Source: Deltaproteobacteria bacterium
GTDB taxonomy: Bacteria; Chloroflexota; Dehalococcoidia; Dehalococcoidales; BS750m-G39
DNA: 64,000 bases
Reading direction: 5' to 3'
Assembly: GCA_030603275.1 (NCBI GenBank)
Contig: JAUVYB010000001.1
Coordinates: 19,832-83,831, forward strand
The position numbers were made by a program, and so were the translations under genes. The stretch's first letter is position 1; every line of letters begins with the position of its first letter. Below are positions 15,120-43,797 of this stretch, in pieces. The notes below the pieces were generated by a model that saw nothing but the letters and a program-made list of their open reading frames with translations, was not told the DNA's origin and searched no databases.

Positions 15120-15222
15120 AATTCACACCTCCTTTAGCAAACCTTAACCGAGGCAGGTTCCCCACTAATAATAACAGGAACCGAAGCCAGATAACAGATG
15201 CCCCATTATCCCCCCTCTCGCT

Positions 15223-21949: not shown

Positions 21950-21987
21950 TGCCCTTTACCCCCAATTAACACTATAAATATTCACCT

Positions 21988-22024
21988 AAAAAAGCAGGCC
22001 CTTGCGCCTGCCGCACAAGGGCCT
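21988..22024 (-). terminator. Intrinsic terminator or attenuator hairpin between the DUF35 gene and rplJ
   Basis: On the minus strand, AGGCCCTTG (11-nt loop) CAAGGGCCT forms a 9-bp stem followed by GCTTTTTT. It ends about 38 nt upstream of the rplJ ATG. Confidence 0.6.
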
Positions 22025-22127
22025 ATAATTCAAGCCCTTTGTATCCTCGGCAGGCAGTTCATTAAGCCTCAACTGGCACCCGCTGTCTCAGGAAACCTGT
22101 TTTATCCTGTTATTTTATTCTATTTTA

Positions 22128-22616: not shown

Positions 22617-22654
22617 AAACTTACCCCCTTATAATCTAGCGTTAATACTCTCTC

Positions 22655-23836: not shown

Positions 23837-23859
23837 GTTAAAACCTCCTTAAATATCGC

Positions 23860-24273: not shown

Positions 24274-24279
24274 TTAAAG

Positions 24280-25462: not shown

Positions 25463-26176
25463 TCAACCAGAGGTTAACGATAAGGTTGGTTTCAGATCAA
25501 GCTTTATGCCAGGTCCCATAGTAGTAGTCAAAGAAGCGGTCTTGATATACTGGCCCTTGGCACCGGCAGGCTTAGCCCGGGATATTGCCTCAATCACAGC
25601 GGTAAGATTGCCCATCAGCTTATCAGCCTCAAAACTAACCTTACCCAGCGAGACATGAATAATAGCCGTCCTGTCCAGTTTAAACTCCACCCGCCCCTGG
25701 CGGGCCTCGTTGATTGCCCGGGGCAAGTTTTCGCCAGCCACAACCGTCCCCGACTTGGGGTTAGGCATCAGTCCCCGCCTCCCCAGAATTTTCCCCAGCC
25801 GGCCTACCTTACCCATCATATCCGGGGTAGCTATAGCAGTATCAAAATCCAAAAAGCCACCATCAATCTTCTTAATCAAATCATCGCCACCCACCAAATC
25901 AGCCCCAGCGGTCTCGGCGTCTCTGGCCGCTTCACCTTGAGCAAAAACCAGAACCCGCACCTTTTTGCCCAGACCATGGGGCAAAAGAGCCACACCGCGC
26001 ACCTGCTGGGTAGCATCACGGGGGTCAACACCCATCCGCAGGTGAAGCTCAACCGTCTCATCAAATTTGGAGTAAGCCACCTTCTTGGCCAGCTCAATAG
26101 CCTCCAGGGGAGGATAAAGCTGGGCACTGTCTACCAGACCGACCGCTTCATTATATTTCTTACCGTGTTTAGTCAA
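25463..26176 (-). CDS. rplA: Ribosomal protein uL1
   Basis: 237 aa with typical L1 sequence (GKKYNEA..., [15 protein letters not shown]). Confidence 0.95.
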
Positions 26177-29525: not shown

Positions 29526-29554
29526 CTTGACAACAAATGAGTTTTTATGTATAC
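29526..29554 (+). promoter_or_regulatory. Sigma70-type promoter of the trp/aro operon
   Basis: TTGACA (29526-29531), 17-nt spacer, TATACT (29549-29554). Confidence 0.6.
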
Positions 29555-29560
29555 TAGCCC

Positions 29561-29858
29561 AAACTGAATATTGAATAAAGGCTGAGAACGAGACTAGTAG
29601 GCTCCAAGCGGGGCTAAAGAGAGCCGGGTAAGGTGTAAGCCGGCGCCAGCGCAGGGGTTGAATGGACTCGGGAGCCGCAAACCGAAAGGGATTCCCAAGT
29701 AGGCTTTGACGGAGGGGCACCGTTAGCTGAGCCCAGAGTATCGCTTTAAATATTAAGGCTGTACCCGAAAAGAGATGGTTGCCATTTTGGTAATCAATTA
29801 GGGTGGCACCGCGAAGGATTAACCTTTCGCCCCTATAGGGGTGGGAGGTTATTTTTTT
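29561..29858 (+). promoter_or_regulatory. T-box leader RNA, probable Trp (UGG) specifier
   Basis: T-box sequence AATTAGGGTGGCACCGCG lies at about 29796-29813. Also present: AGAGAG (AG-bay-like), an AGTA motif, and GAA-TGG-A with TGG at 29663-29665. A terminator follows directly. Confidence 0.8.
29823..29858 (+). terminator. T-box terminator hairpin
   Basis: CCTTTCGCCCC-TATA-GGGGTGGGAGG forms an 11-bp stem including 3 G-U pairs, followed by TTATTTTTTT. The RBS AAAGGAG and the GTG start of trpE follow. Confidence 0.75.
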
Positions 29859-29881
29859 AGGGAAAAGGAGTTAAGTTTACT

Positions 29882-31342
29882 GTGTACCATCCAACACTGG
29901 AAGAATTTAAAGCACTGGGAAAGAGAGGAAATCTGGTGCCCGTCTACCGCGAGGTTGCGGCGGGTTCGGATACACCGGTTTCCGCCTTCTTGAAGGTAAA
30001 ACGCGGCGGTTATTCCTTCCTTCTGGAGAGCGTGGAAGGCGGCAAACAGGCGGCTCACTACAGCTTTATCGGCACCGAGCCCTACCAGGTGCTCAGCACC
30101 AGAGAGGGAGATAAAACCGACCCCCTTAACCTCATCGCCGAAGAAATGAACAAGCACAGGCTGGTACCGGCAAGCGGACTGCCTGATTTCTGCGGCGGCG
30201 CCGTCGGCTACCTTGCCTACGAAACGATACGGCGCCTGGAAGAACTTCCCTCACCAGACTCTGACCCCCTGGCTCTGCCCGAATCGGTGTTCATGTTCGT
30301 TGATACTATGCTCATCTTCGACCACGCTGCTAATAAAATCAAAATCGCAAGCCACGCCCGCCCCGATGGCGACGCCGACAGCGCCTACCAGGCAGCAATA
30401 GAGAAGATAGAGGAATTAGTAAACAGACTCGCCCAACCCCTCAAAAACCCCCGGCACCTGATAGCAGACACACCAGCACAACCTGCTGAAATCTCTTCCA
30501 ACCTCACTAGAGAAGAATTTGAAACCAATGTCGAGAAGGCAAGGCAATATATAACCGAGGGCGAAACCATCCAGATTGTGCTCTCCCAGCGCCTGAGCCG
30601 GCGCACCAACGCCCATCCCTTTGAAATCTACCGGGCCCTGCGGAGCATCAACCCATCACCCTATATGTTCTTCCTGGACTTAAAGGACTTCCAGCTCATC
30701 GGCTCATCCCCCGAAATCCTGGTAAGAGCGGTAAACGGCACGGCGACCACCCGCCCCCTAGCGGGGACAAGGCCGAGGGGGAAGACACCCCCCGAGGATG
30801 CCCGGCTGGAAAAAGAGCTCCGCAATGACGAGAAGGAACGAGCCGAGCACATAATGCTGGTAGACCTGGGGCGCAACGACATCGGGCGGGTGAGCCTGCC
30901 GGGAACGGTCAAGGTCAGCGAACTTATGGATGTGGAACGCTACTCTCACGTCATGCACCTGGTCACCAATGTGGAAGGCAAGCTGCGCCCCGAACTCACC
31001 CCCTTTGACGCCCTGCGCGCCTGCTTTCCCGCCGGCACCGTCTCCGGTGCGCCCAAAATCCGTGCCATGGAGGCTATCGCCGAGCTTGAGCCGGACAAGA
31101 GAGGCCCCTACGCCGGCTGCGTGGGCTACTTCAGCTTCTCCGGCAGTATGGATACCGCCATAACCATAAGGACTATTATCCTGACCGAGGGAACAGCCCA
31201 TGTCCAGGCTGGCGCCGGCATTGTCTATGACAGCGTGCCGGCGCGGGAATATGAAGAAACCATGAACAAGGCCCGCGCCCTGTTAAAAGCCATCGAGCAG
31301 GCCGAGGCTACGGAGATGACCTATGCTGCTGCTGATAGATAA
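29882..31342 (+). CDS. trpE: Anthranilate synthase component I
   Basis: 486 aa, chorismate-binding family (LLESVEGG, GAGIVYDSVP). GTG start. Confidence 0.95.
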   Translation: MYHPTLEEFKALGKRGNLVPVYREVAAGSDTPVSAFLKVKRGGYSFLLESVEGGKQAAHYSFIGTEPYQVLSTREGDKTDPLNLIAEEMNKHRLVPASGLPDFCGGAVGYLAYETIRRLEELPSPDSDPLALPESVFMFVDTMLIFDHAANKIKIASHARPDGDADSAYQAAIEKIEELVNRLAQPLKNPRHLIADTPAQPAEISSNLTREEFETNVEKARQYITEGETIQIVLSQRLSRRTNAHPFEIYRALRSINPSPYMFFLDLKDFQLIGSSPEILVRAVNGTATTRPLAGTRPRGKTPPEDARLEKELRNDEKERAEHIMLVDLGRNDIGRVSLPGTVKVSELMDVERYSHVMHLVTNVEGKLRPELTPFDALRACFPAGTVSGAPKIRAMEAIAELEPDKRGPYAGCVGYFSFSGSMDTAITIRTIILTEGTAHVQAGAGIVYDSVPAREYEETMNKARALLKAIEQAEATEMTYAAADR

Positions 31343-31904
31343 TTATGATAGCTTTACCTATAACCTGTACCAGTACTTAAGCGAACTGGGGGAAGAGGTA
31401 CGGGTAGTCCGCAATAACAAGACAACTCTGGACGAAATTGAAATGATGAACCCGGAGCGCATCGTAATCTCACCCGGCCCCTCCACCCCCTTAAACGCCG
31501 GCATATCCAACGATGTCATCCGGCATTTTAGCGCCAAGGTGCCCGTCCTCGGCGTTTGCCTGGGTCACCAGTGTATCGGCTATAGCTACGGAGGCGCCTT
31601 TGGCCCGGCCAGGAAGATTATGCACGGTAAGTCGTCTCTGATCTACCATAACAATACCGGCGTCTTTAGTAGCCTCCCCAACCCATTCCCCGCCATCCGC
31701 TATCACTCTCTGGTCGTAGTCCGGGAAGAACTCCCCGACTCTCTGGAGATAACCGCCTGGACCGAAGATAACACCATCATGGGGCTTCGTCACCGCCACC
31801 ACCCGGTGGAGGGGGTGCAGTTCCACCCCGAATCTTTTATGACCCACGCCGGGAAGGATATACTAAGAAATTTCCTGGCCAAGGAGGTGGCCCGGCATGA
31901 TTAA
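31323..31904 (+). CDS. trpG: Anthranilate synthase component II (glutamine amidotransferase)
   Basis: 193 aa with MLLLIDNYDSFTYNLYQYL, GVCLGHQ and FHPES. Confidence 0.95.
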   Translation: MLLLIDNYDSFTYNLYQYLSELGEEVRVVRNNKTTLDEIEMMNPERIVISPGPSTPLNAGISNDVIRHFSAKVPVLGVCLGHQCIGYSYGGAFGPARKIMHGKSSLIYHNNTGVFSSLPNPFPAIRYHSLVVVREELPDSLEITAWTEDNTIMGLRHRHHPVEGVQFHPESFMTHAGKDILRNFLAKEVARHD

Positions 31905-32928
31905 GGAAGCTATTACCTTATTAATAGATAGGCAGTCCCTCACTATGGAGCAGGCCGCCGGGGTGATGGAGGAGATGACCACGGGACAGGTAACACCAGC
32001 CCAGTTCGGTGCCTTTGTCACTGCCCTCAGAATCAAAGGTGAGACCGCCGACGAGATTGCCGGGCTGGCCAGCGTCATGCGGGCTAAATCAGTCCGGGTA
32101 AAGACCACCGACCCGGTGATTGATATTGTCGGCACCGGAGGCGATAACTCCCGGAGTTTCAATATTTCCACCGCCGCCGCCTTTGTTGCTGCCGGCGCCG
32201 GGATAAAGGTAGCCAAGCACAACAACCGCGCCGTGACCAGTCAGTGCGGCAGTGCCGATGTCCTAGAGGCACTGGGAATAAAAATTGAACTCAATGCTAA
32301 TCAAGTAAAAGACTGCCTGGAAAAGGTAGGCATAGGCTTCATGTTTGCCCCCCTCTTCCACCCGGCAATGAAGTTCGCCGCTGCCCCCCGGCGTGAGATT
32401 GGCATACGCACTATATTTAATATCCTCGGCCCGCTGACCAACCCGGCGCTGGCTGAGTCCCAGGTTCTGGGTGTGCCCGGCGAGGAACTCGGCGGAAAGC
32501 TGGTTCAAGTGCTCCAGCGCCTGGGTTCAAAGCACGCCATGGTGGTCCATAGCCTGAACGGAATGGATGAATTCTCAATAGCCGGCAAGTCCCGGGTTTG
32601 GGAACTAAGCAACGGCAAGATAACCGATTACCCTGTCGCCCCCGAGGACTTCGGGCTGGTGGCCGCCGGAGTAGAGACACTGTTGGGAGGCACACCCCAG
32701 GAGAATGCGGCCATACTGCGCTCGGTGCTGGAGGGGGAAAAAGGGCCGAAAAGAGACGCCGTGATTATGAACGCCGCCGCCGGCATAGCGGTCAGTCACC
32801 GCACTAAAAATCGCTCAGGGCTGCCCGCCCTGAAGGAAGGCGCCGAGATAGCCCGGGAAACAATAGACAGCAGGCGGGCGCTGGACAAACTGGATAAACT
32901 AATTACACTAAGCCAGAGCTACGGTTAA
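31897..32928 (+). CDS. trpD: Anthranilate phosphoribosyltransferase
   Basis: 343 aa with DIVGTGGD and KHNNRAVTSQCGSADVLEALG. Confidence 0.95.
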   Translation: MIKEAITLLIDRQSLTMEQAAGVMEEMTTGQVTPAQFGAFVTALRIKGETADEIAGLASVMRAKSVRVKTTDPVIDIVGTGGDNSRSFNISTAAAFVAAGAGIKVAKHNNRAVTSQCGSADVLEALGIKIELNANQVKDCLEKVGIGFMFAPLFHPAMKFAAAPRREIGIRTIFNILGPLTNPALAESQVLGVPGEELGGKLVQVLQRLGSKHAMVVHSLNGMDEFSIAGKSRVWELSNGKITDYPVAPEDFGLVAAGVETLLGGTPQENAAILRSVLEGEKGPKRDAVIMNAAAGIAVSHRTKNRSGLPALKEGAEIARETIDSRRALDKLDKLITLSQSYG

Positions 32929-32933
32929 GAGCC

Positions 32934-33704
32934 ATGTTTCTAGATAAGATTGTTGCCGAAAAGCGGGAAGAGCTAAAGCAGAGGCAGGAAACTGTCCCCC
33001 TGCCCGAGCTCAGGACGGCCATCATGGAAAGGCCTTTGCCCCTGAATCTGGCGGCGGCTCTTAGCGGGGATGGTCTCCGTTTAATTGCCGAGGTCAAGCG
33101 GGCGTCGCCTTCCCGGGGAGTATTATGCCCTGACCTAGACCCGGTTAAGCTGGCCGGCACCTACGCCCAGTGCGGGGCGGCGGCAATATCGGTGCTCACC
33201 GAGTCGCGGTATTTCGGGGGGAGCAGGGAAGACCTTGAAGCCATTAAGCGCGCCTTACCCGATATTCCCCTATTAAGGAAAGACTTTATCCTGAAGCCCT
33301 ACCAGATATTTGAATCGTGTGCCTGGGGAGCCGACGCCGTGCTGCTGATTGTGGCCATATTGGATGACTTCGAACTCGGGGAACTGCTCTCGTTGACCCA
33401 CGCTCTGGGAATGCAGTGCCTGGTTGAAGTGCACAACAAAAATGAGCTCAAAAAGGCGCTGGCACACAATATCAAGATAATCGGTATTAATAATCGCGAC
33501 CTTGATACCATGATTGTAGATATAAACGTGACCAGGCAGCTTCGCCCCCCCATCCCCCGGGGCCGGATAGTGGTCAGTGAAAGCGGCATCAAAGGGCGGG
33601 ATGAGGTCGAGAAGCTGAAGGAATGGAAGGTTAACGCCATACTTGTTGGCGAGGCGCTGGTTACCGCCGATGACGTGGCGGCCAAGATAAAGGAGCTACT
33701 TTGA
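32934..33704 (+). CDS. trpC: Indole-3-glycerol-phosphate synthase
   Basis: 256 aa with IAEVKRASPSRG, LRKDF and GINNRDL. Confidence 0.95.
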   Translation: MFLDKIVAEKREELKQRQETVPLPELRTAIMERPLPLNLAAALSGDGLRLIAEVKRASPSRGVLCPDLDPVKLAGTYAQCGAAAISVLTESRYFGGSREDLEAIKRALPDIPLLRKDFILKPYQIFESCAWGADAVLLIVAILDDFELGELLSLTHALGMQCLVEVHNKNELKKALAHNIKIIGINNRDLDTMIVDINVTRQLRPPIPRGRIVVSESGIKGRDEVEKLKEWKVNAILVGEALVTADDVAAKIKELL

Positions 33705-34342
33705 CCAAAATTAAGATTTGCGGCATTACCAAGGTTTCCTACGCCCAGGCGGCGGTAGAAGCCGGGGCTGACCTTATCGGGGTGGTCTTCGTTCCCAGCC
33801 CCCGTCAGGTTACTTATAGGAAAGCCCGGGAGATAGTGGCTGCGCTCAAAGAACACTATTTCCCGGTTGTCGGGGTATTCGTTAATATGCCCGCGGCCAC
33901 GGTAAATGCTGTGGCTGCTTTCTGCGGACTGGACTGGGTGCAGCTCAGCGGCGACGAGGGCTGGGAGTACTGCCGGCAAATCGAAAAACCGGTGATAAAG
34001 GCAGTACATATATCTAATAAGCTGGGGGAGGAGGAGCTACTGGCCCACCTGAAAGAAGGCAAACGGGTACTTGGTTCTCGTCCTTCCATCTACTTGCTGG
34101 ACACTTTCGCTAAGCAAAAGTACGGGGGAACGGGAAAAGTCTTCACCTGGGAGACAGCCAGACGGGCGGTGGCCAAATACCCGGTTATAATTGCCGGCGG
34201 ACTCCACCCGGAAAATGTAGCAGAGGTGGTATCAAGCTTAAAACCCTGGGGGGTTGATGTTTCCAGTGGGGTCGAGAGCCAGGAGGTTAAAGATGTGGGA
34301 AAAATTAAGGCTTTTGTCCAGGCCGTCAGGTCAGCGGAATAA
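33701..34342 (+). CDS. trpF: Phosphoribosylanthranilate isomerase
   Basis: 213 aa starting TKIKICGIT, with GADLIGVVF. TTG start overlaps the trpC stop by 4 nt. Confidence 0.9.
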   Translation: MTKIKICGITKVSYAQAAVEAGADLIGVVFVPSPRQVTYRKAREIVAALKEHYFPVVGVFVNMPAATVNAVAAFCGLDWVQLSGDEGWEYCRQIEKPVIKAVHISNKLGEEELLAHLKEGKRVLGSRPSIYLLDTFAKQKYGGTGKVFTWETARRAVAKYPVIIAGGLHPENVAEVVSSLKPWGVDVSSGVESQEVKDVGKIKAFVQAVRSAE

Positions 34343-34378
34343 AGCAATGGATTATCCAATCAAAGGAGGAACAGGCAA

Positions 34379-35374
34379 ATGTTGGTGGTAATGAAAAACG
34401 ATGCTACCGAGGCACAGGTAAAGGCAATCATTCATGAAATAGAGAACATGGGTTACCGCGGCGTTCCCATGCCCGGCGCCCAGCGGACGGCGGTTTGCAT
34501 TATCGGCAACCAGGGGCCGGTCGATGACTCACGGCTTCTGGTCATGGAAGGCGTAAAGGAGACCATCAGGGTAACCAAGCCCTATAAACTGGTCAGCCGG
34601 GAGACGCATCCGGAGTCAAGAGTTATCGCCGTTGGCGATATCAAGATTGGCGGAGGCAAACCGGTAATAATGGCCGGGCCCTGCGCCGTAGAAAGCGAGG
34701 AGCAGGCACTGACCATCGCCCACCTGGTGAAAAAAGGCGGTGCCCAGGTCTTCCGCGGGGGCGCCTTCAAACCCAGAACCTCACCCTACAGCTTCCAGGG
34801 TTTGGGTGAGGAAGGACTGAAGATACTGGCTAAAGTCCGCCAGGAGACCGGCCTGCTAATCGTAACCGAGGCTACTGACCACACCAATATTGAACTGGTA
34901 GAAAAGTACGCCGATATTATCCAGATCGGCGCCAGGAACATGCATAACTACTCCCTGCTGCGCCGGGCCGGTCATTCCTCTAAACCAGTCCTGCTTAAGC
35001 GCAGTTTTGCGGCAACAATCGAAGAGCTGCTGATGTCAGCGGAATATATCAGCTCGGAAGGGAACAACCAGGTTATCCTGTGTGAACGGGGAATACGCAC
35101 CTTCGCCGATAACACCCGGAATACCCTGGATTTGAGCGCTATCCCTTCAATCAAGGAATCCAGCCCCCTGCCTATCATCGTTGACCCCAGCCATGCCGCC
35201 GGCAAACGCGACTATGTTATTTCTCTGTCAAAAGGAGCTATCGCCGTCGGCGCCGACGGCCTGCTGGTGGAGGTGCACCACGACCCGCCCCATGCCCTCT
35301 CCGACGGAATGCAGTCCCTGTATCCGGAACAGTTCGGCGAACTAATGAAGGAGATAAATAGTCTAATCAGATGA
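34379..35374 (+). CDS. aroF: DAHP synthase, type I-beta, with an N-terminal ferredoxin-like/ACT-like regulatory domain
   Basis: 331 aa. It aligns along its length with Thermotoga-type DAH7PS (MAGPCAVES, FRGGAFKPRTSPYSFQGLG, IQIGARN, DPSH) and carries a roughly 65-aa N-terminal extra domain. Confidence 0.9.
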   Translation: MLVVMKNDATEAQVKAIIHEIENMGYRGVPMPGAQRTAVCIIGNQGPVDDSRLLVMEGVKETIRVTKPYKLVSRETHPESRVIAVGDIKIGGGKPVIMAGPCAVESEEQALTIAHLVKKGGAQVFRGGAFKPRTSPYSFQGLGEEGLKILAKVRQETGLLIVTEATDHTNIELVEKYADIIQIGARNMHNYSLLRRAGHSSKPVLLKRSFAATIEELLMSAEYISSEGNNQVILCERGIRTFADNTRNTLDLSAIPSIKESSPLPIIVDPSHAAGKRDYVISLSKGAIAVGADGLLVEVHHDPPHALSDGMQSLYPEQFGELMKEINSLIR

Positions 35375-36474
35375 TGAGCCGAAAAGAAAACTCAACAGAA
35401 TACGTCATTAAACTGGAAAAGGTCAGGCGCTGCCCGATTGTTGTCGGCGACGGCATTATAAACCAGCTTGAGCGGTATTTTGACTTCAGTGGTTATTCCG
35501 GCATTGCCCTGCTCACCGATACCACCGTCCAAAAGCTCTACGGCCAGAGCCTGCTCCAGGCGCTGGAGGCAACGGGAAAGAAGGTATCTCTGCTCACCCT
35601 GCCGGTGGGGGAGAGAGCCAAGTCGCTGAATACAGTGGAGCGCGGCTATAAATTTCTGCTGGAGAATAATATCGACCGCAAGGGGCTGATATGTGCTCTG
35701 GGGGGAGGGGTGGTCGGTGATGTGGCCGGGTATATCGCCGCCAGCTACCTGCGGGGTATTGACTACATTCAACTGCCCACCACCCTCCTCGCCCAGGCAG
35801 ACAGCAGCATCGGCGGCAAGGTGGGGGTCAACTTCGGTGGCAAGAAGAACATGGTCGGCAGTTTCTACCAGCCGAGCGCCATTATCGGCGACGTCGCCTT
35901 ACTTAAGTCTTTACCCCCCGCCGAGATGCGAAACGGCCTGGCTGAGGTAATAAAGTACGGTTTAGCAATGGACGAGGAATTATTCCACCTCCTTGACCAA
36001 AAGAAGGAAAGGGAATTTTCCACGGCCGAGCTACAGGATATTGTTATACGGTGCTGCCGTTTGAAAGCCGGCATAGTAGAGGTGGACGAGACGGAGCGGA
36101 CCGGCCAGCGAGCCATACTGAACTTCGGCCATACCGTCGGTCACGCCCTGGAAGCCGCCACCAAACTGCAAGAGCTGAGTCACGGAGAGGCGGTGGCTAT
36201 CGGGATGGCAGCCGCCGCCAGAATAAGCGAGCAGGTCGGCATGCTTGACCGGAGCAATATCCCCATAATTGAAAACCTGCTATCAAGGTTCGGCCTGCCT
36301 GTCTACTATCAGGGGGTAAACCCCGACGAACTGGTTAGCGCCACCCGCTTTGACAAGAAAACAACCAAGGGGCAGACCGGCTGGGTGTTACTCAAGGGCA
36401 TCGGCAATGGGGTAACTAGCCAGCCGGTGGCAGATGACGTGGTCAGAAAAGTCCTTATGGAGATATGCCGATGA
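35371..36474 (+). CDS. aroB: 3-dehydroquinate synthase
   Basis: 367 aa with GGGVVGDVAGY and NFGHTVGHALE. Confidence 0.93.
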   Translation: MMSRKENSTEYVIKLEKVRRCPIVVGDGIINQLERYFDFSGYSGIALLTDTTVQKLYGQSLLQALEATGKKVSLLTLPVGERAKSLNTVERGYKFLLENNIDRKGLICALGGGVVGDVAGYIAASYLRGIDYIQLPTTLLAQADSSIGGKVGVNFGGKKNMVGSFYQPSAIIGDVALLKSLPPAEMRNGLAEVIKYGLAMDEELFHLLDQKKEREFSTAELQDIVIRCCRLKAGIVEVDETERTGQRAILNFGHTVGHALEAATKLQELSHGEAVAIGMAAAARISEQVGMLDRSNIPIIENLLSRFGLPVYYQGVNPDELVSATRFDKKTTKGQTGWVLLKGIGNGVTSQPVADDVVRKVLMEICR

Positions 36475-36917
36475 AAATAATGGTAATTAACGGCCCCAAT
36501 CTTAATATGCTGGGCAAAAGGGAGGCCAATCACTACGGCACCGATACCCTGAAATCTATAGAACAGGCACTCACCGGGAAAGGCAAGGCGCTGGGCTGCG
36601 AGCTTATTTTCTTCCAGTCCAATCACGAGGGGGGTATTATCGACTTTATCCAGGAGAAAACAGGCGCAGCCGACGGCATATTGATTAACCCCGGCGCACT
36701 GACCCACTACGGCTACTCCCTGCATGATGCCCTCGCCGATTCCGGACTGCCCGTGGTCGAGGTGCACCTGTCAGACATCCAGGCCCGCGAAGAGTGGCGT
36801 AAGATATCGGTTATTTCAGACGTGGTTATTAAACAGATTAGCGGTCTTAAAACACAGAGCTATTTAGTGGGGCTGGAAACCCTGGCCGAACATATCAGGA
36901 GCCGGAAGAAAAAGTGA
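36465..36917 (+). CDS. aroQ: Type II 3-dehydroquinate dehydratase
   Basis: Contains MVINGPNLNMLGKRE and HLSDIQAREEWR. The ATG at 36471 (ATGA overlap with aroB) is an equally good start. Confidence 0.92.
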   Translation: MPMKIMVINGPNLNMLGKREANHYGTDTLKSIEQALTGKGKALGCELIFFQSNHEGGIIDFIQEKTGAADGILINPGALTHYGYSLHDALADSGLPVVEVHLSDIQAREEWRKISVISDVVIKQISGLKTQSYLVGLETLAEHIRSRKKK

Positions 36918-38203
36918 AAGTAAGAATAACCCCATCATCGGTGACGGGAGAGGTCTCGGCACCGCCGTCCAAGAGCTATACCCACCGGGCGGTGATAGTG
37001 GCCTCGCTGGCAACGGGGGAGAGCCTGATTGAGGACCCCCTGCTGTCGGATGACACCCGCTACACCATTGACGCCTGCCGCTCCCTGGGCGCCGATATTG
37101 AGCTCAAGGGCAACCGGCTGATGATTACCGGCACCGGCGGCCAAATCAGGGTTGCCCCCGGTAACGAGAAGATTTTTGCCGGCGACTCGGGGAGCACCAT
37201 CCGCATGGTAGCCCCGCTGGCGGCGCTAGCCCCAACCAAGGTCATCCTTGACGGCGATAGCCGGCTGCGCCAGCGCCCGGTAGGCGACTTGCTCTCGGCA
37301 CTAAAAAGCCTGGGGGCCAGCGCCCGCTCGCTGGGAACTAACGGCTGCCCGCCCATAGAAATCCAGGGGGGAAAGCTCACCGGGGGAGAAATCACCACCC
37401 CCGGCAGGGTAAGCTCCCAGCACGTAAGCGCCCTGCTCATGATTGCCCCCTATACCGAAAACGGGCTCAGAATCAAGATTGCCGAGGGGTTCCATTCCAG
37501 ACCATATATAGACATAACCCTGGATGTCATGCGGGACTTCGGCGTTGAGGCGGTAAATAAAGACTATAAGGAGTTATTGGTCAAAGGCGACCAGATATAT
37601 AAAGGAAAGCGCTACCGGATAGAGGGCGACTACTCCTCGGCCGCTTATTTCTTAGCCGCCGGCGCCATCGGCGGCCGACCGGTAACGGTAAAAAATTTAA
37701 AGATTAACTCAGCACAGGGTGATAAATATCTCTTGAACATCCTGTCACTGATGGGGTGCACTATTGAACGTCAGAAAGAGCAGGTGACGGTTTCCCGCCG
37801 TGATGAGCTAAAAGGCGTTACCGTAGATATGGGTGACTATCCCGACCTTGTCCAGACGGTGGCGGTGGTCGCCGCCTATGCCCGGGTCAAAACGGAAATG
37901 ACCAATATCGGCCATCTCAGGTTCAAAGAAACAGACCGCCTCGGCGACACGGCTGCCGAACTGGGCAAGATGGGGATAAGAGTAGATGCGACCGATAACA
38001 CTATAGTAGTCTACGGGGGAAAGCCCCGGGGCACTGAAATAGAAGCCCACAACGACCACCGCATGGCGATGAGCCTGGCTATTGCCGCCCTCTTTGCCGA
38101 GGGTGACTCCATTATTAACGGCGCCGAGGCGGTAACCAAGTCCTACCCCCGGTTCTTTACCGACCTGGCAAGCTTAAGGGCGAAAATCGAGGAGCTGTCA
38201 TGA
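36914..38203 (+). CDS. aroA: EPSP synthase (3-phosphoshikimate 1-carboxyvinyltransferase)
   Basis: 429 aa with PSKSYTHRA, GDSGSTIR and a DHRMAMS-type C-terminus. GTG start. Confidence 0.95.
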   Translation: MKVRITPSSVTGEVSAPPSKSYTHRAVIVASLATGESLIEDPLLSDDTRYTIDACRSLGADIELKGNRLMITGTGGQIRVAPGNEKIFAGDSGSTIRMVAPLAALAPTKVILDGDSRLRQRPVGDLLSALKSLGASARSLGTNGCPPIEIQGGKLTGGEITTPGRVSSQHVSALLMIAPYTENGLRIKIAEGFHSRPYIDITLDVMRDFGVEAVNKDYKELLVKGDQIYKGKRYRIEGDYSSAAYFLAAGAIGGRPVTVKNLKINSAQGDKYLLNILSLMGCTIERQKEQVTVSRRDELKGVTVDMGDYPDLVQTVAVVAAYARVKTEMTNIGHLRFKETDRLGDTAAELGKMGIRVDATDNTIVVYGGKPRGTEIEAHNDHRMAMSLAIAALFAEGDSIINGAEAVTKSYPRFFTDLASLRAKIEELS

Positions 38204-38724
38204 ACATCGTCCTTATCGGCATGAGGGGCTCGGGGAAGACCGCGGTGGGCAAAATTTTAGCCCAAAAACTGGGCAAAGAGTTTATTGAGATGGATGAGCT
38301 TATCACCCGTAAGACGGGGCTTAGCATCCCTGAAATTGTGGAAAAACACGGGTGGGGGAAATTCAGGGACATAGAAGAAGAACTAACCGGCGAAGTCTCC
38401 GGGCGGGATAATATCATCAATGCCAGCGGGGGCGGGGTGGTGACCAGAGAGAAAAACATCGCTAAACTTAAAAAAAGCGGGGTACTGGTCTGGCTGCAAG
38501 CCGATTTTGATACCCTGGTCAGCCGTACTGGAGAAGATACCGACCGGCCGCCGCTGGTCGAGGGCAGGACACGGCGGGAGGATATGGAGATAACTTTTAA
38601 AGAACGAAAGCCACTCTACCAGCAAGCCGCCGATTTGACTATCAACACCGAAAACAAAACGCCGGAAGAAGCGGCTGACCTGGTTATAAACCTGCTGGCG
38701 ATACGGGGGTTCACCGGTGATTGA
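38200..38724 (+). CDS. aroK: Shikimate kinase
   Basis: 174 aa with IVLIGMRGSGKTAVG, followed by DELI. Confidence 0.92.
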   Translation: MNIVLIGMRGSGKTAVGKILAQKLGKEFIEMDELITRKTGLSIPEIVEKHGWGKFRDIEEELTGEVSGRDNIINASGGGVVTREKNIAKLKKSGVLVWLQADFDTLVSRTGEDTDRPPLVEGRTRREDMEITFKERKPLYQQAADLTINTENKTPEEAADLVINLLAIRGFTGD

Positions 38725-39565
38725 CGCTAATACCAAAATATGTTGCCTTATCGGCGACCCGGTGGAGCACTCGCTTTCCCCGCTAATCCATAATACCGGC
38801 TATCAGGCGCTGGGCATCAACTACGCCTATGTATCATTCCGGGTCAGCGACATCAAGCGGGCGATAGAGGGTATAAGGGGGCTGGGTATACGGGGGGCAA
38901 GCGTTACCATCCCCCACAAAGTCAGCGCTATAAAACACCTTGATAAGATTGACCCGCCGGCTGAGGAAATCGGCGCCGTCAACACCATCGTCAACGATGA
39001 GGGTGTGCTAACCGGATACAACACAGATGGCGACGGCGCCTTACAGGCACTGGAGGAAGTGACCACGCTCAAGGGGAAAAAGGCGGTACTGATTGGCAGT
39101 GGCGGCGGCGCCCTGGCCATCGCCGTGGGGCTTAAAGCCAGGGGGGTTAAGCTGGTGGTCTTAAACCGAACCGAGGATAAAGCCAGAAAGCTGGCCAAGC
39201 AGATTAACGCCGGAGGCTTTGGTGGCTTGAAAAAGCTATCGGAAATCGCTTCGGCCGATATCCTGATAAACGCTACCCCGGTGGGGATGTTGCCCGAGAC
39301 AGACCAGTCAATCATCCCCAAAGACCTTCTTCATAATAGGCTCACCGTCTTTGATATTGTCTATAATCCCGGAGAAACCAGACTGCTAATTGAAGCCAGA
39401 GAGAAGAGATGTGCCGTTGTTTATGGCTATAAGATGCTGCTCTATCAGGCAGCCAGACAATTTGAGCTCTTTACCGGACTCAAGGCCCCTTTACCAGCCA
39501 TGGAGTCCGCCCTAACTCAGGCTTTGGAAGGAGGAGAAGATGCTACGCATTTTGACCGCCGGTGA
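38717..39565 (+). CDS. aroE: Shikimate 5-dehydrogenase
   Basis: 282 aa with SLSPLIHN, VTIPHK, NTDG and GSGGGALA. GTG start. Confidence 0.92.
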   Translation: MIDANTKICCLIGDPVEHSLSPLIHNTGYQALGINYAYVSFRVSDIKRAIEGIRGLGIRGASVTIPHKVSAIKHLDKIDPPAEEIGAVNTIVNDEGVLTGYNTDGDGALQALEEVTTLKGKKAVLIGSGGGALAIAVGLKARGVKLVVLNRTEDKARKLAKQINAGGFGGLKKLSEIASADILINATPVGMLPETDQSIIPKDLLHNRLTVFDIVYNPGETRLLIEAREKRCAVVYGYKMLLYQAARQFELFTGLKAPLPAMESALTQALEGGEDATHFDRR

Positions 39566-40691
39566 ATCTCACGGCCCGGCCTGCGTAACCATTATCGAGG
39601 GAATGCCCGCCGGAGTCAGCGTCCGCGTTGAGGATATCGACCGGGACCTGAAACTGAGACACTCCGATTCCGGCCGCGGTGGCCGGGGACTAATTGAAGA
39701 GGACAAGGTGGAAATCCTCTCCGGTATCCGCTACGGCAGGACGCTGGGCAGCCCGATTACGCTGATAGTCAGGAACCTGGACTTCGCTAACTGGCAGGAT
39801 GAGATGAGCATTGAGGAGACCGAAAAGCCAGCGGCTAAGATAACCAGGCCCCGCCCCGGCCACGCCGACCTGGCCGGTGTTTTAAAGTATGGCCAGAATG
39901 ACATCAGGAATATCTCGGAGAGGGCCAGCGCCCGAGAGACGGTAGGCAGAGTCATGGCGGGAGCGGTTATCAGGCTGCTGCTGCTGGAGTTCGGTATCAG
40001 GATAGCCAGCCACACCGTCCAGATAGGCCCGGTAAGGCTAACCCACCGTTACTCTGATTTTAAAGAGGTCGCAAAAGTCTTTGAAACCGACCCCGATATA
40101 AGGTGCATCGACCGGGAAACCTCACAGAAAATGAAAAAGGCAATCCTGGAAGCCGGCAATAAAAAGGATACTCTGGGCGGGGTGGTCGAGGTTATCGCCA
40201 CCGGCGTTCCCGTCGGCCTGGGAAGCGTTATGCACTACGACCGCCGTCTTGACGGCAGGCTCGCTCAGGCCCTGATGAGCATCCCCTCGGTGAAGGCGGT
40301 GGAGATAGGCAACGCCATTGCCGGGGCGGCTATGTTCGGCTCCGAGTTCCAGGACCGGATTGCCTATAATGATGGCCGCTTTTCCCGCCAGACCAATAAT
40401 ATGGGCGGCATAGAAGGCGGCATGAGCAACGGCGAAGATATCGTCTGCCGTGTCTACCATAAACCCATCTCCACCCTGGGGGCTCCGGCAAAAACAGTAG
40501 ATATCACTACTCACCAGTCGGCGCCAGCCACGGTAGAGAGGTCGGATATCTGCGCTGTCCCCCGCGCCGGCGTTATCTCGGAAGCGATGCTGGCTCTGGC
40601 TCTGGGGCAGGCAATGACAGAGAAGTTCGGCGGCGACCATATAGAAGAGATGAAACGCAATTTCAGTTCTTATATCAAGTCACAGCCGTAG
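39540..40691 (+). CDS. aroC: Chorismate synthase
   Basis: 383 aa with MLRILTAGESHGP, RPGHAD and GGIEGGMSNG. Confidence 0.95.
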   Translation: MLRILTAGESHGPACVTIIEGMPAGVSVRVEDIDRDLKLRHSDSGRGGRGLIEEDKVEILSGIRYGRTLGSPITLIVRNLDFANWQDEMSIEETEKPAAKITRPRPGHADLAGVLKYGQNDIRNISERASARETVGRVMAGAVIRLLLLEFGIRIASHTVQIGPVRLTHRYSDFKEVAKVFETDPDIRCIDRETSQKMKKAILEAGNKKDTLGGVVEVIATGVPVGLGSVMHYDRRLDGRLAQALMSIPSVKAVEIGNAIAGAAMFGSEFQDRIAYNDGRFSRQTNNMGGIEGGMSNGEDIVCRVYHKPISTLGAPAKTVDITTHQSAPATVERSDICAVPRAGVISEAMLALALGQAMTEKFGGDHIEEMKRNFSSYIKSQP

Positions 40692-40708
40692 GGTATTTAT
40701 AGGGGGAT

Positions 40709-41896
40709 ATGATGCTACCTGATGAAAGAGGCTACTTCGGAGACTACGGAGGGCAGTTTGTCCCCGAGACTCTGATGCCGGTTCTGGATGAACTGGCAAC
40801 CGCCTACAAGGAAGCCAGGGCTGACAAAGCCTTCTGGAGTGAGTTTGAGGCGCTGTCCCGTGACTATTCGGGGAGACCGACGCCGCTCTACCTGGCCGAA
40901 AGGCTGACCGAAAATTGCGGCGGCGCCCGTATTTTCCTCAAACGGGAAGACCTGGCCCATACCGGCGCCCATAAAATCAATAACGCCCTGGGACAGGGCC
41001 TCCTCGCCCGGAGGATGGGCAAGCGCCGGATTATTGCCGAAACCGGAGCCGGCCAACACGGCGTGGCCGCCGCCGCCGTCTGCGCCAAGCTGGGGCTGGA
41101 GTGCATCGTCTACATGGGTGAGGAGGATGTGCGCCGCCAGTCACTCAATGTCTTCCGGATGAGGCTGATGGGCGCTGAGGTCAGACCGGTACACGGGGGC
41201 AGCCGCACCCTTAAGGATGCCATCAACGAGGCGATAAGGGACTGGGTGACCAACCCCGATACCTACTACCTGCTGGGCTCGGTGGTCGGCCCCTCCCCCT
41301 ACCCCGTGATGGTGCGGGACTTTCAGTCGGTAATCGGTAAAGAGACCAGGCAGCAGATTCTGGATAAGTCCGGCCGCCTCCCCGACTATATCATCGCCTG
41401 CGTCGGCGGCGGCAGCAACGCTATCGGCATTTTTTATTCCTTTTTAAACGATAAGGAGGTCAATCTTATCGGCGTGGAGGCGGCGGGGAGGGGGCTCAGC
41501 ACCGGCGAACATGCCGCCCCGCTGATGGCGGGAACAGTCGGCGTGCTCCACGGGACGAAGTCCTATGTCCTCCAGACTAAAGATGGGCAGATTAGAGAGA
41601 CGCACAGCATATCGGCCGGGCTGGACTATCCCGGCGTCGGGCCCGAGCACAGCTACCTCAAGGACAGCGGGCGGGCGACTTATGTGGCGGTAACTGACCA
41701 GGAAGCCCTTGAAGGCTTTAAGTTGCTCTGCAAGACCGAGGGCATCGTCCCGGCCCTGGAACCGGCTCACGCCATATTTCATGCGGCTAAAATGGCCAGC
41801 TCGCTGGAGAAAGAGAAAACCATCGTGGTCAACCTCTCCGGGCGTGGCGATAAAGACATGGACATAGTAGCCCAGGCGCTGGGGGTGAAACTATGA
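40709..41896 (+). CDS. trpB: Tryptophan synthase beta chain
   Basis: 395 aa with [22 protein letters not shown] and GGGSNAIG. Confidence 0.97.
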
Positions 41897-42681
41897 GCAA
41901 AATCGCTTCTGCCTTCAGCCCGCCGGGGCATAAAGCTCTCATCGCCTATGTTACCGTAGGCTACCCCTCCGTTGAAGCCACTCTAAAGGTAGTCCCTCTA
42001 CTGGCCGATAGCGGCGCTGACATTGTAGAGCTGGGGATACCATTCTCCGACCCCCTGGCCGATGGGGTCACCATACAAAAGTCCAGTTTTCATGCCCTGC
42101 AGAACGGCGTAACCCCCCGGCTCTGCCTTGAGCTGGCCGGGCAGTTAAGCCAGAAGGTCAATATACCACTGGTGTTTATGACCTATTATAATCCGGTCTT
42201 CAGCTACGGGCTGGATAAGTTCTGCTCTGCCTGTGCCGGTTCTGGTATTTCCGGGATAATCATCCCTGATTTGCCCCCCGATGAAGGCTCAGACCTGGAG
42301 GCTATCAGCCAGAGGCAGGGTCTTGACCTCATCTACCTTCTAGCTCCAACCAGCACCGGGGAGCGCATCAGGCTGGCCGCTCAGAGGTCACGGGGGTTTA
42401 TCTACCTGGTTTCAGTAACCGGGGTTACCGGGGCAAGAGACAGAGTGCCGGCGGATTTGGAGGCATTTGTGACCAGAGTAAGGAATACAACTGCCCAGCC
42501 CCTATGCGTTGGCTTTGGCATATCCACCCCGGAGCAGGCAAGCCGGATAGCCCGGATTGCCGATGGGGTAATTGTGGGCAGCCGCATAATTCAGCTTATG
42601 GAGAAGGAGGACGACTTCGCTTCACTGGCTGAACTGGTAAGGAGTTTAAGGGGCTCTATCGATAAGATATCCGGGCAGTAG
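41893..42681 (+). CDS. trpA: Tryptophan synthase alpha chain
   Basis: 262 aa with [13 protein letters not shown] and GFGIS. ATGA overlap with trpB. Confidence 0.95.
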
Positions 42682-42708: not shown

Positions 42709-43758
42709 CTACATCTTGCCCCCATCATAGCCAACCCCTCTTGAGAACCGGTCGAGCATTAAGTCCACAATCTGGTCAATGGGTGTCTTATTCTGGGCGA
42801 TAAGCTCGGCCCGCGTCTGCAACAGAATGATACTTTCCGGTAATAGCCTGTCTTCTTCTACCGCCCATTCCACATCTTGAGCTTCGCCAAAATGCTTCTC
42901 CAGCACCTTGCCCAACTTCCCTATTTCCCTGACCTCCTCGTCACTCAAGCAGAATTTGCCACTCTTGCCTGGCGGAGCTTTCTTTTCTATCACCCCACCC
43001 TTTTTGAAGGTTACATACCTGGACTTCGGCCCCAGTTTCTTTTCCTGTATTTTCAGACTCTTCTTATCCAGAATATAAATGTCCGGTGTCGACTCACCGC
43101 CGACCACGCTTTCGCCCAATCCCCAGTTACCCTCGATTATCATCCTGGCCGCATCGCCGGTATTAGGGTCAGCCGTGAAGATAACCCCGGCAGCACGCGC
43201 CTTCACCATCTTCTGCACAGCAATACCGATAGGGTCGCTCTCCAGTGGCATCTTCTTCCGGCTTCGAAAAACCAGGGAGCGAGTGTTAAAGGTACTGGCC
43301 CAAACCTGCTTGATTTTGTCTACCAGAGCTGGCCCCCCAACCACATTAAGATAAGTCTCATACTGCCCGGGGTGACTCACCGTCCCGGCCGAACGTGTTG
43401 ACACAGCAATTTCATCAGTATGGCACCGTCGGCTTAGTTCATTATAGTGTGAGACTATTGCCTTCTCTATCTTCTCAGGCATGGCTTTCGACTGCACAAT
43501 CTGGCGTATATCGACGCTCGCTTGTTTACACTGCTTCAGGTCTTTGGGTTTAGACTTAGCCAGGTATTCCCCTATTTCATCAACAACCCCCGTCATACTC
43601 ATAAAATCCTTGTAGGCTTCAACAGAGAGGGCAAACCCAGGGGGTACTCTCAACCCAATCCTGGCCATCTCACCCAGGTTAGCGCACTTTCTGCCCACCA
43701 GTTCTCTGTCATCTTTGCCCACTTCCTCAAACCAGAGCACCAACTTCTCAGACACCAT
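42709..43758 (-). CDS. PEP synthase N-terminal (ATP-grasp, PPDK_N) domain protein, PpsB-like
   Basis: 349 aa with GRKCANLGEM and the typical PPDK_N layout. It has no phospho-His swivel domain of its own. Confidence 0.8.
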   Translation of the reverse strand: MVSEKLVLWFEEVGKDDRELVGRKCANLGEMARIGLRVPPGFALSVEAYKDFMSMTGVVDEIGEYLAKSKPKDLKQCKQASVDIRQIVQSKAMPEKIEKAIVSHYNELSRRCHTDEIAVSTRSAGTVSHPGQYETYLNVVGGPALVDKIKQVWASTFNTRSLVFRSRKKMPLESDPIGIAVQKMVKARAAGVIFTADPNTGDAARMIIEGNWGLGESVVGGESTPDIYILDKKSLKIQEKKLGPKSRYVTFKKGGVIEKKAPPGKSGKFCLSDEEVREIGKLGKVLEKHFGEAQDVEWAVEEDRLLPESIILLQTRAELIAQNKTPIDQIVDLMLDRFSRGVGYDGGKM

Positions 43759-43797
43759 GTCCTCCCCTCAGGGACTTAACGGTTTATGTCAACCAGG

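Follow-up and report, generated by a model that had tools for sequence, protein, structure and literature searches.

A complete shikimate pathway lies nested inside a tryptophan operon in the 64-kb stretch of DNA that was analysed as a whole (the window). Fourteen genes on the + strand, at 29882-42681, follow one another in the order trpE-G-D-C-F, aroF-B-Q-A-K-E-C and trpB-A. By family matches, all seven enzymes of the common aromatic pathway are encoded here. The seven Trp-branch genes (trpEGDCFBA) are all present and co-directional, and they are not contiguous, because an aro insert of 6.3 kb separates trpF from trpB. Judged from its sequence, trpEGDCF-aroFBQAKEC-trpBA is probably one long, translationally coupled operon with one sigma-70-type promoter and, as its gate, a tRNA-Trp T-box of the terminator type.

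Gene content and T-box leader

In a profile search, the top NCBIfam match was the expected enzyme family for each of the 14 ORFs, in agreement with the gene order given in a first-pass annotation of this DNA. A curated equivalog, equivalog-domain or subfamily cut-off was passed by 11 of the 14 ORFs (Table 1). The next gene, at 42709-43758, is convergent with trpA.

Table 1. Features of the leader, genes and trpF/aroF seam (positions in the window).
Feature	Position	Strand	Evidence
Sigma-70-type promoter, TTGACA-17-TATACT	29527-29555	+	11/12 matches; top + strand site of the region
T-box leader (Stem I, Stem II/IIA-B, linker hairpin, Stem III, antiterminator)	29575-29837	+	Rfam RF00230
Specifier codon UGG (Trp) in GAA-UGG-A	29663-29665	+	GAATGGA at 29660-29666; 3′ side of specifier loop, then a purine (Rfam alignment)
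T-box core AATTAGGGTGGCACCGCG / AAUUAGGGUGGCACCGCG with UGGC bulge for the tRNA 3′ end	29796-29813	+	Rfam alignment
Intrinsic terminator (14-pair stem, 4-nt loop, U7)	29820-29858	+	Stem-loop 29820-29851; T7 29852-29858
trpE, anthranilate synthase component I	29882-31342	+	TIGR00564, 572.2 bits (cut-off 517.7)
trpG, glutamine amidotransferase component II	31323-31904	+	TIGR00566, 241 bits, cut-off passed
trpD, anthranilate phosphoribosyltransferase	31897-32928	+	TIGR01245, 414 bits
trpC, indole-3-glycerol-phosphate synthase	32934-33704	+	NF001377, 321 bits
trpF, phosphoribosylanthranilate isomerase (PRAI)	33701-34342	+	NF002298, 197.2 bits, slightly below cut-off 215; every listed match is PRAI
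trpF/aroF seam, 36-nt spacer with nothing but an RBS (AAAGGAGG)	34343-34378	+	RBS is the sole conserved element across loci
aroF, type I-beta DAHP synthase with N-terminal ferredoxin-like/ACT domain (residues 1-67)	34379-35374	+	NF006421, 496 bits
aroB, 3-dehydroquinate synthase	35371-36474	+	TIGR01357, 355 bits
aroQ, type II 3-dehydroquinate dehydratase	36465-36917	+	NF003805, 182.7 bits (cut-off 146; subfamily level)
aroA, EPSP synthase	36914-38203	+	TIGR01356, 453.4 bits (cut-off 287.25)
aroK, shikimate kinase	38200-38724	+	Best match NF010553, 140.4 bits, below cut-off 204; orthologues are Pfam SKI
aroE, shikimate dehydrogenase	38717-39565	+	NF001319, 295 bits
aroC, chorismate synthase	39540-40691	+	NF003793, 409 bits
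trpB, tryptophan synthase beta	40709-41896	+	TIGR00263, 639 bits
trpA, tryptophan synthase alpha, last operon gene	41893-42681	+	TIGR00262, 275 bits

The leader was scanned with the Rfam covariance model RF00230, which it matched over the full model (positions 1-219) with 119.5 bits, above the gathering score of 93 (E = 7e-26). The orthologous leaders scored 96-116 bits. This match bears out the T-box call of the first-pass annotation, and the Trp specifier proposed there holds as well, as the Rfam alignment puts UGG in the canonical register of the specifier loop. The same alignment assigns AGGGUGGCACCGCG to the antiterminator. Nine leaders were compared, namely that of the window, those of L002, L081, L083, L161, L162, L165 and L167, and the trpS variant L087. 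GAATGG[A/G] was invariant in all nine, and GGGTGGCACCGCG / GGGUGGCACCGCG was identical across them. The promoter, found as it had been annotated, is kept in eight of the nine leaders; its pattern was not found in L087.

Both the terminator and its U-run were present as annotated, but the stem comprises 14 pairs and not 11. The 5′ arm of this stem shares sequence with the 3′ half of the antiterminator; the two structures are mutually exclusive. The U-run is common to eight of the nine leaders. Four aligned leaders contained eight compensated base pairs, and in their terminator stems four one-sided changes (U-G to C-G, G-U to G-C, U-A to U-G) kept the pairing. The discriminator base of tRNA-Trp is G, with which the UGGC bulge is compatible (TBDB preprint, 10.1101/2020.06.17.157016). 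The 64-kb window contains no tRNA-Trp gene, so the match of anticodon and discriminator is presumed, with the G discriminator taken from that preprint.

The predicted operation of this switch, including co-transcription and responsiveness to tRNA-Trp, follows what is established for T-boxes. A rise in uncharged tRNA-Trp would lead to pairing between its CCA anticodon and the Stem I specifier UGG. The free 3′ end of the tRNA would pair with the UGGC bulge, which would stabilise the antiterminator and block the 14-bp terminator, and RNA polymerase would read through into all 14 genes. With charged tRNA-Trp, most transcripts would stop at the U-run. The seven chorismate-pathway enzymes would in this way be co-produced with the Trp-branch enzymes on Trp demand.

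Gene junctions and the unit of transcription

From 5′ to 3′, the junctions measure -20, -8, +5, -4, +36, -4, -10, -4, -4, -8, -26, +17 and -4 nt, values that on recomputation agree with the overlaps of 4-26 nt and the gaps of 5, 17 and 36 nt given in the first-pass annotation. Most are overlaps (-4 to -26 nt), and the remaining gaps do not exceed 36 nt. In five of the 4-nt overlaps, stop and start codons overlap as ATGA, GTGA or TTGA. At the seams, the RBS alone is conserved across loci; the trpF/aroF spacer varies from 19 to 40 nt (19 nt in L161), and L161 and L162 have overlapping aroC and trpB. The GC content is even across the seams, which indicates that the nesting is not recent.

A sequence scan found no convincing terminator within the operon, as the first-pass annotation had also concluded. 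Terminator-like sites in the region numbered 22, compared with 17.5 ± 4.0 by chance, and the sole + strand site with at least seven pairs, at 39856 within aroC, is followed by a poor T tail. Nor was a convincing internal promoter found in the operon: internal + strand sites reached at most 9/12 matches, and none was near aroF or trpB. Because of the tight packing, the RBS-only seams and the lack of internal signals, transcription of the 14 genes as a single unit appears to be the most parsimonious reading.

The first-pass annotation had placed the common pathway under the control of tRNA-Trp alone. The same three features favour the single unit on which that claim depends, but sole control is not established, and weak intragenic promoters are possible. 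A purely Trp-gated trunk looks risky for the supply of Phe, Tyr and folate, which argues for a further expression route or a second gene set. Basal, T-box-independent expression of aro and trpBA could come from promoters within coding sequences such as those of trpF and aroC, with the T-box acting as a booster. The Bacillus supraoperon, which has internal promoters, offers a precedent, and the Phe/Tyr problem would be solved without extra genes. Weak 9/12 promoter-like sites are indeed found on the + strand at 31316, 32399 and 32882. However, none of these precedes aroF or trpB, and promoter-like sites on both strands exceed the chance expectation just modestly (17 compared with 10.4 ± 3.0). 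Moreover, a conserved -35/-10 pair is absent from the last 300 nt of trpF in the five lineages compared, and relatives have seam spacers reduced to 19 nt or to an overlap. We regard such a composite transcription unit as somewhat unlikely, and retain the single T-box-gated unit as the preferred reading.

DAHP synthase and the supply of phenylalanine and tyrosine

AroF has the two-domain architecture of the type I-beta DAHP synthase of Thermotoga maritima (1RZM, 3PG9), with which residues 1-329 align end to end at 53% identity. The N-terminal domain matches PF18152 (DAHP_snth_FXD; residues 1-67, 56.4 bits, cut-off 27) and is followed by PF00793 (268 bits), which confirms the Thermotoga-type domain suggested by the first-pass annotation. 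PF18152 scores are lowest in the trp-embedded enzymes (56-57 bits, compared with 68-85 bits). Where the T. maritima enzyme has K27-C-H29-I-S31-K-G33 (K-x-H-I-S-x-G), AroF has the strand motif R-G-V/I-P-M-P-G. Among 120 relatives, 118 carry RG[VI]PMPG, with Val/Ile at the position of His29 and Met at that of Ser31, and all 120 carry Cys at the position of G40. We take His29 and Ser31 to be contacts of the Tyr ligand in T. maritima; AroF lacks both residues. In the T. maritima enzyme, the Tyr site is made by pairs of ACT domains (PMC5493349).

The ferredoxin-like/ACT domain probably provides a second, post-translational layer of allosteric control on DAHP synthase. Feedback by Tyr or Phe had been suggested for this layer; the domain is present and strongly conserved, but the replacement of the His29 and Ser31 positions in 118 of the 120 relatives qualifies that part of the suggestion. 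Since these positions are Val/Ile and Met, the effector of AroF may differ from Tyr or Phe. The enzymes thus offer a DAHP synthase family with a distinct, invariant regulatory-domain motif.

No pheA, tyrA or chorismate mutase gene was found in the operon, as already annotated, or in the rest of the 64-kb window, and as far as 10 kb from the operon the three different neighbourhoods likewise contain none of these genes. By contrast, chorismate mutase and tyrA do belong to the trp/aro clusters used for comparison, L117 and L133. Also absent from the operon and the window is hisC. The genes iorA and iorB, 23 kb upstream of the operon, pass equivalog cut-offs and adjoin a 2-hydroxyacyl-CoA-dehydratase-type cluster in which every match is below cut-off. 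The aro-block proteins contain 5 Trp residues, whereas about 11 were predicted from free-standing homologues (Poisson p about 0.03).

These observations could mean that the shikimate pathway serves mostly Trp, that Phe and Tyr come mainly from peptides, or from aryl acids via indolepyruvate:ferredoxin oxidoreductase, and that the DAHP synthase domain has been retuned from Tyr. The branch-gene pattern, the nearby iorA/iorB, the nearly uniform RG[VI]PMPG and uniform Cys40 of the relatives and the Trp-poor aro enzymes all point in this direction. On the other hand, the absence of branch genes is an absence from the surroundings of the operon, cultured Dehalococcoides synthesise their own aromatic amino acids, the dehydratase cluster stays below cut-off throughout, and the roles of His29 and Ser31 are presumed. 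We consider this physiology quite unlikely. A further, unlikely proposal is that the lineage's only shikimate pathway is wired wholly to Trp, by the T-box in transcription and by an ACT-like domain that now responds to Trp or some other effector in place of Tyr, with Phe and Tyr taken from the environment or made from aryl acids via the same oxidoreductase. If true, aromatic metabolism would have been reorganised around Trp in a bacterium that is abundant in sediment.

The supply problem would vanish if the nested aro genes were a second, Trp-starvation-inducible set, with a constitutive or Phe/Tyr-regulated aro set, pheA and tyrA elsewhere in the genome. A parallel is E. coli, where TrpR controls aroH, a DAHP synthase isozyme specific for Trp. 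The trp operon of the relative L086 contains aroF alone, and its genome must therefore keep the other aro genes elsewhere. A separate origin of the nested block would also fit the divergence of its AroF, which shares only 45-47% identity with its free-standing counterparts in other Dehalococcoidales (L025, L029, L052), together with its use of aroQ and its different gene order; elsewhere in the Dehalococcoidales, free-standing aro clusters run aroF-aroB-x-aroE-aroK-aroA-aroC. Weak evidence against this comes from a peptide-pattern scan of incomplete MAGs, in which the three nested-operon MAGs each gave the nested copy alone among the best 80 of 594 AroB-encoding loci of GTDB species representatives. 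Typical Dehalococcoidales AroB sequences scored within the range of these 80. Dehalococcoidia genomes are also typically small, and a second set of seven genes would be a costly load; we hold a Trp-dedicated duplicate to be very doubtful.

Conservation, origin and known systems

At least nine independent contigs carry this 14-gene order, and the genomic neighbourhoods are of three kinds, characterised by tuf, hem genes and recA-recX, respectively. Its recurrence on many independent contigs argues that the arrangement is not due to chance. Operon proteins are 66-97% identical across the conserved loci, and the same Trp T-box leader is present on all eight nested-operon contigs that include the operon 5′ end. 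In L165 and L167, aroK and aroE are fused. The lineage is uncultured and probably belongs to the Dehalococcoidia and not to the Firmicutes. It is abundant in metagenomes: clustering at 90% identity gave over 120 protein clusters for its DAHP synthase alone.

Other relatives carry aroF alone (L086) or trpS (L087) at the trpF/trpB junction, and these states are possible intermediates. Trp T-boxes precede canonical trp operons in L087, L108, L117, L126 and L153. The nested arrangement probably arose stepwise: in a Dehalococcoidia lineage whose trpEGDCFBA was already preceded by a Trp T-box, aroF would have entered at the trpF/trpB junction, the state seen in L086, and aroB-Q-A-K-E-C would have been added behind it. 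The reverse order, with loss from the full block to aroF alone, could apply equally. The loci offer a natural series for stepwise operon growth (trpF/trpB, +trpS, +aroF, +aroFBQAKEC), and pose a testable question: how three amino acids and folate are balanced when the shared trunk listens to tRNA-Trp only.

In E. coli, aroH and aroL belong to the TrpR regulon, and Trp-specific transcriptional control extends into the common pathway. There, a protein repressor acts on scattered genes and affects isozymes alone, next to parallel Tyr- and Phe-controlled isozymes, whereas here the entire pathway lies within the trp operon behind an RNA switch. In Dehalococcoides CBDB1 and 195, T-boxes precede trpE and a trpB-like gene; this trp operon has the same regulatory device, and the organisms probably belong to the same class, but it contains no aro insert (PMC2494555). 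Aro/trp supraoperons have been published for Bacillus and Desulfovibrio. In a further type of known system, common-pathway genes and a complete trp operon are joined in one long co-directional cluster (PMC1173090). Such clusters are tandem and not nested, and genes of the Phe/Tyr branches (chorismate mutase, tyrA, pheA) form part of them; in clusters L133, L135 and L136, the T-box motif was not found.

Aromatic supraoperons are a textbook case of operon merging with regulation following. In Bacillus, the trp operon lies within an aro operon, and the supraoperon is a complex functional unit (PMC1173090). The B. subtilis version (aroF-aroB-aroH-trpEDCFBA-hisC-tyrA-aroE) likewise unites co-directional common-pathway and Trp-branch genes through insertion of one operon into another (PMC1173090). 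The present operon cannot be assigned to this type: the nesting is reversed, with aro inside trp, as the first-pass annotation had correctly recognised; all seven common steps are included rather than some; hisC, tyrA and chorismate mutase are absent; and the leader is a Trp T-box, not a TRAP-binding one, in another phylum. With a Trp T-box before trpE and aro/trp supraoperons both already published, the operon reveals no new mechanism and is an assembly of known parts in a new arrangement. It mirrors the Bacillus case and is the most complete of these supraoperons, with seven common and seven Trp steps behind what would be one RNA switch.

Organization of the nested operon and its leader

The nested operon comprises 14 co-directional ORFs in the order trpE, trpG, trpD, trpC, trpF, aroF (DAHP synthase), aroB, aroQ (type II dehydroquinase), aroA, aroK, aroE, aroC, trpB and trpA. 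For each ORF, the top NCBIfam match was the expected enzyme family, in most cases above the curated cut-off. The 13 junctions measured, in order, -20, -8, +5, -4, +36, -4, -10, -4, -4, -8, -26, +17 and -4 nt, and stop/start overlaps (ATGA, GTGA or TTGA) accounted for 5/6 of the operon's 4-nt overlaps. All genes and upstream elements listed in the first-pass annotation were recovered in place by NCBIfam, Rfam, and promoter and terminator scans.

Features of the window and of related loci
Feature	Contig	Position	Strand	Details
iorA	window	4428-6326		indolepyruvate:ferredoxin oxidoreductase, above NCBIfam equivalog cut-off
iorB	window	6266-6937		indolepyruvate:ferredoxin oxidoreductase, above NCBIfam equivalog cut-off
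iorAB with adjoining cluster	window	4428-16431		2-hydroxyacyl-CoA-dehydratase-type cluster
rplJ	window	21425-21949
L10 leader	window	21982-22110
Thiolase/DUF35 insert	window	22128-25431		two thiolase-like genes and a ChsH2/DUF35-like zinc-ribbon/OB gene
rplA	window	25463-26176
Promoter TTGACA-17-TATACT	window	29527-29555	+	best + strand promoter match of the region
T-box	window	29575-29837	+	Rfam, full-length; 119.5 bits (gathering score 93); E = 7e-26
Linker hairpin	window	29706-29770
Terminator stem-loop	window	29820-29851	+	14 pairs, then seven T; overlaps 3' half of antiterminator
PEP-synthase/PPDK-like pair	window	42709-45489		N-terminal ATP-grasp protein, then PEP-utilizers protein
PEP-synthase/PPDK-like pair	L162	18286-20996
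ileS region	window	59083-62400		IleS of 1009 aa
trpC-trpF-aroF-trpB-trpA	L086	1-4178		contig starts in trpC
trpE-G-orf244-D-C-F-trpS-B-A	L087	4960-15069		Trp T-box; followed by TrpB2-like gene
Tandem DAHP synthase genes	L117	15162-17327		each with ferredoxin-like domain
17-gene tandem cluster	L133	6170-20142		also in L135 and L136; aroH is CM_1
aroK-aroE fusion	L165	13795-15123		442-443-residue shikimate kinase/dehydrogenase protein
aroK-aroE fusion	L167	13831-15162		442-443-residue shikimate kinase/dehydrogenase protein

The Rfam structural alignment places GAA-UGG-A on the 3' side of the specifier loop. UGG followed by the usual purine identifies the specifier as a Trp codon, as had been proposed from the sequence; this assignment is based on the structural alignment, and in the leader's MFE fold part of the specifier is base-paired. 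AAUUAGGGUGGCACCGCG forms the T-box core, and its bulge is UGGC. The orthologous leaders of three other nested operons (L002, L081 and L083) scored 96-116 bits in Rfam. Across four aligned leaders, the promoter was conserved, with an invariant -35 hexamer, and both GAAUGG-purine and the UGGC core were invariant. Eight base pairs in Stem II, the linker hairpin and Stem III had two-sided changes that kept them paired, and the one-sided changes in the terminator stem also preserved pairing. The same landmarks were found in the leaders of four further loci (L161, L162, L165 and L167). The Trp T-box was present in all eight nested operons with their 5' end on the contig. The linker between Stem IIA/B and Stem III holds an extra hairpin of ~30 nt (A1 columns 235-266), an insertion relative to Rfam that is preserved by compensatory changes across the four leaders.

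Evidence for a single transcription unit

The region contained 22 terminator-like sites, compared with 17.5 ± 4.0 expected by chance, and no good combination of stem and T-run was found on the + strand within the operon. As in the first-pass annotation, no internal terminator was found. Internal promoter-like sites on the + strand reached at best 9/12 matches, and none lay before aroF or trpB in the scan of the region. At the two seams, the ribosome-binding site was the sole conserved element. The trpF|aroF spacer measures 36 nt in the window, ranges from 36 to 46 nt in several relatives and is as short as 19 nt in L161. The genes aroC and trpB, 17 nt apart in the window, overlap by 4 nt in L161 and L162. 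An internal promoter at the end of trpF was rejected: when the last 300 nt of trpF and the spacer were aligned across five lineages, only coding motifs and the ribosome-binding site were conserved, and these 300 nt held no conserved -35/-10 pair. Because no convincing internal signals were found, the seams conserve only a ribosome-binding site, no -35/-10 pair is conserved, and the gene 3' of trpA is convergent with it, the parsimonious reading would be that all 14 genes are co-transcribed. The interpretation first suggested is partly supported, with exclusive control of this unit by uncharged tRNA-Trp as a possibility.

A split PEP-synthase/PPDK-like pair converges on trpA in the window and in L162. 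An isochorismatase-family gene that the window lacks separates the two genes of this pair in L162 and L164.

Recurrence across lineages and operon history

GTDB species representatives were scanned with AroB and metagenome contigs with TrpF. Among the species representatives, the AroB scan found the nested order in no loci beyond the closest three, L001 (AroB identity 92%, submitter label Deltaproteobacteria), L002 (69%, record title Dehalococcoidia bacterium) and L003 (72%, record title Dehalococcoidales bacterium). Other Dehalococcoidales and Chloroflexota carry a free-standing aroF-aroB-x-aroE-aroK-aroA-aroC cluster. As L001 is labelled Deltaproteobacteria, the class assignment of the nested-operon lineage is one from record titles, not from phylogeny. 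The L001 label is probably wrong, because the next relatives carry Dehalococcoidia or Dehalococcoidales labels. The proteins of L001 (JABMRW010000001.1) are 84-97% identical to those of the window's operon.

The full nested order was also found on the metagenome contigs L081 and L083. An AroF protein search returned >120 clusters at at least 88% identity, and each of the four clusters sampled for context (MAG GCA_964396965.1 from NCBI, one 160-kb JGI contig and two others) had the nested operon. The operon occurred in three neighbourhoods (tuf-secE-nusG-rplKA, hemACDBL and recA-recX). Since the surroundings differ and the order stays, the nested block is conserved as a unit. This confirms the architecture described in the first-pass annotation as real and recurrent across lineages.

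In L165 and L167/L168, aroK and aroE are fused, although in the pathway order of the genes one step does not directly follow the other. In the window, and also in L161 and L162, the thiolase/DUF35 insert lies between rplA and the L10 leader with rplJ and splits the usual rplKA-rplJL cluster.

In more remote relatives, whose TrpF is 42-55% identical, the trp operons are canonical, and several have a Trp T-box 5'. These T-boxes scored just below the Rfam gathering threshold (91 bits in L087; 70-82 bits in L153, L117, L108 and L126), which missed them; they were recovered by a core-motif scan and E-value searches. They agree with a 2008 report on Dehalococcoides, in which T-boxes precede trpE and a trpB-like gene (PMC2494555).

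In three relatives (L085, L088 and L089), trpF and trpB are adjacent, and in the window's clade the full aroFBQAKEC block occupies this junction. The simplest history would start from an ancestral T-box-controlled trpEGDCFBA operon, into which aroF would have been inserted, with the remaining six aro genes added later; the order may instead have been the reverse, by loss from a full block. A recent horizontal insertion of the aro block was rejected, because GC content stays at 52-62% throughout and neither seam shows a step; an older transfer is possible.

On contig L086, a DAHP synthase gene is the sole embedded aro gene, and this locus is a possible intermediate state. Its AroF is 84% identical to that of the window and has the same regulatory-domain motif (RGIPIPG-type). 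In L087, the trpF|trpB junction is occupied by trpS (tryptophanyl-tRNA synthetase), at the site of the window's aro block; orf244 of this locus had no Pfam or NCBIfam match.

Aromatic amino acid supply and comparison with known systems

Residues 1-329 of the window's AroF aligned with the Thermotoga maritima DAH7PS (1RZM/3PG9), and residues 1-67 form the ferredoxin-like domain PF18152. The T. maritima enzyme binds Tyr at sites built from pairs of these ACT domains (PMC5493349). The PF18152 score was lowest in the trp-embedded enzymes (56-57 bits compared with 68-85 bits). Positions 27-33 read R-G-V/I-P-M-P-G in these enzymes, whereas K-x-H-I-S-x-G stands there in T. maritima and most comparators. 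Mutagenesis work on the T. maritima enzyme assigns ligand-contact roles to His29 and Ser31. Gly40 is replaced with Cys in the trp-embedded enzymes. Among 120 relatives, RG[VI]PMPG was found in 118 and Cys40 in all, and the N-terminal domain was nearly as conserved as the catalytic barrel (mean majority fraction 0.91 vs 0.94). Because the domain is conserved and its motif replaced, we infer that it is functional, yet probably not a simple Tyr sensor. The regulatory domain noted in the first-pass annotation is present, but with the replaced motif its effector may not be Tyr or Phe. Contig L117 encodes two tandem DAHP synthase paralogues, with H-L-S and H-L-I at positions 29-31, which may be differently regulated isozymes; 5' of the pair lie a trp operon with a T-box and a gene for an AroH-type chorismate mutase.

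As noted initially for the operon, pheA, tyrA and chorismate mutase were absent; none was found anywhere in the 64 kb of the window, nor within 10 kb of the operon in the remaining neighbourhoods. In each of three nested-operon MAGs, the nested copy was the only one among the best 80 AroB loci, which is weak evidence against a second aroB.

The cluster adjoining iorAB encodes, on the opposite strand, a GlcD-like FAD oxidase with a CCG/Fe-S protein, two BcrAD/BadFG activator ATPases, two HGD-D dehydratase subunits and two family III CoA-transferases. With all matches below cut-off, it resembles an aryl- or alkyl-lactate dehydratase-like pathway, and together with iorAB it suggests arylpyruvate traffic in one direction or the other.

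The operon proteins contain 0.35% Trp compared with 1.23% in the remainder of the window, and the aro block has 5 Trp residues compared with ~11 predicted from free-standing homologues. This low content fits enzymes made under Trp starvation and is only suggestive, as these families are Trp-poor everywhere.

T-boxes are known from Chloroflexi, and among biosynthetic T-boxes, those for Trp on trp operons belong to the commonest. A T-box was reported at ileS in Dehalococcoides (PMC2494555), whereas none was detected 5' of the window's ileS, even at E <= 1. Three other loci (L133, L135 and L136) have a tight tandem cluster, trpEGDCFBA-aroH-aroF-tyrA-aroA-E-C-K-B-Q. A search for T-box motifs found none in these three loci, and the Rfam scan gave no hit in L133 or L136. 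In L117, the T-box trp operon is followed by aroH-aroF-aroF-tyrA-aroA-aroE. In contrast to the window's operon, all these clusters include chorismate mutase and prephenate dehydrogenase genes.

In the literature searched, no trp operon under T-box control was described as enclosing the whole common pathway; an earlier mention is possible. The nested operon is a well-conserved natural case of operon accretion and raises a question of regulatory logic. In the Bacillus aro/trp supraoperon, trp lies within aro under TRAP control, and the Desulfovibrio vulgaris aro/trp supraoperon is a tandem with pheA and tyrA (PMC1173090). The window's operon differs from both: aro lies within trp behind a T-box, and the arrangement is nested, without pheA and tyrA.
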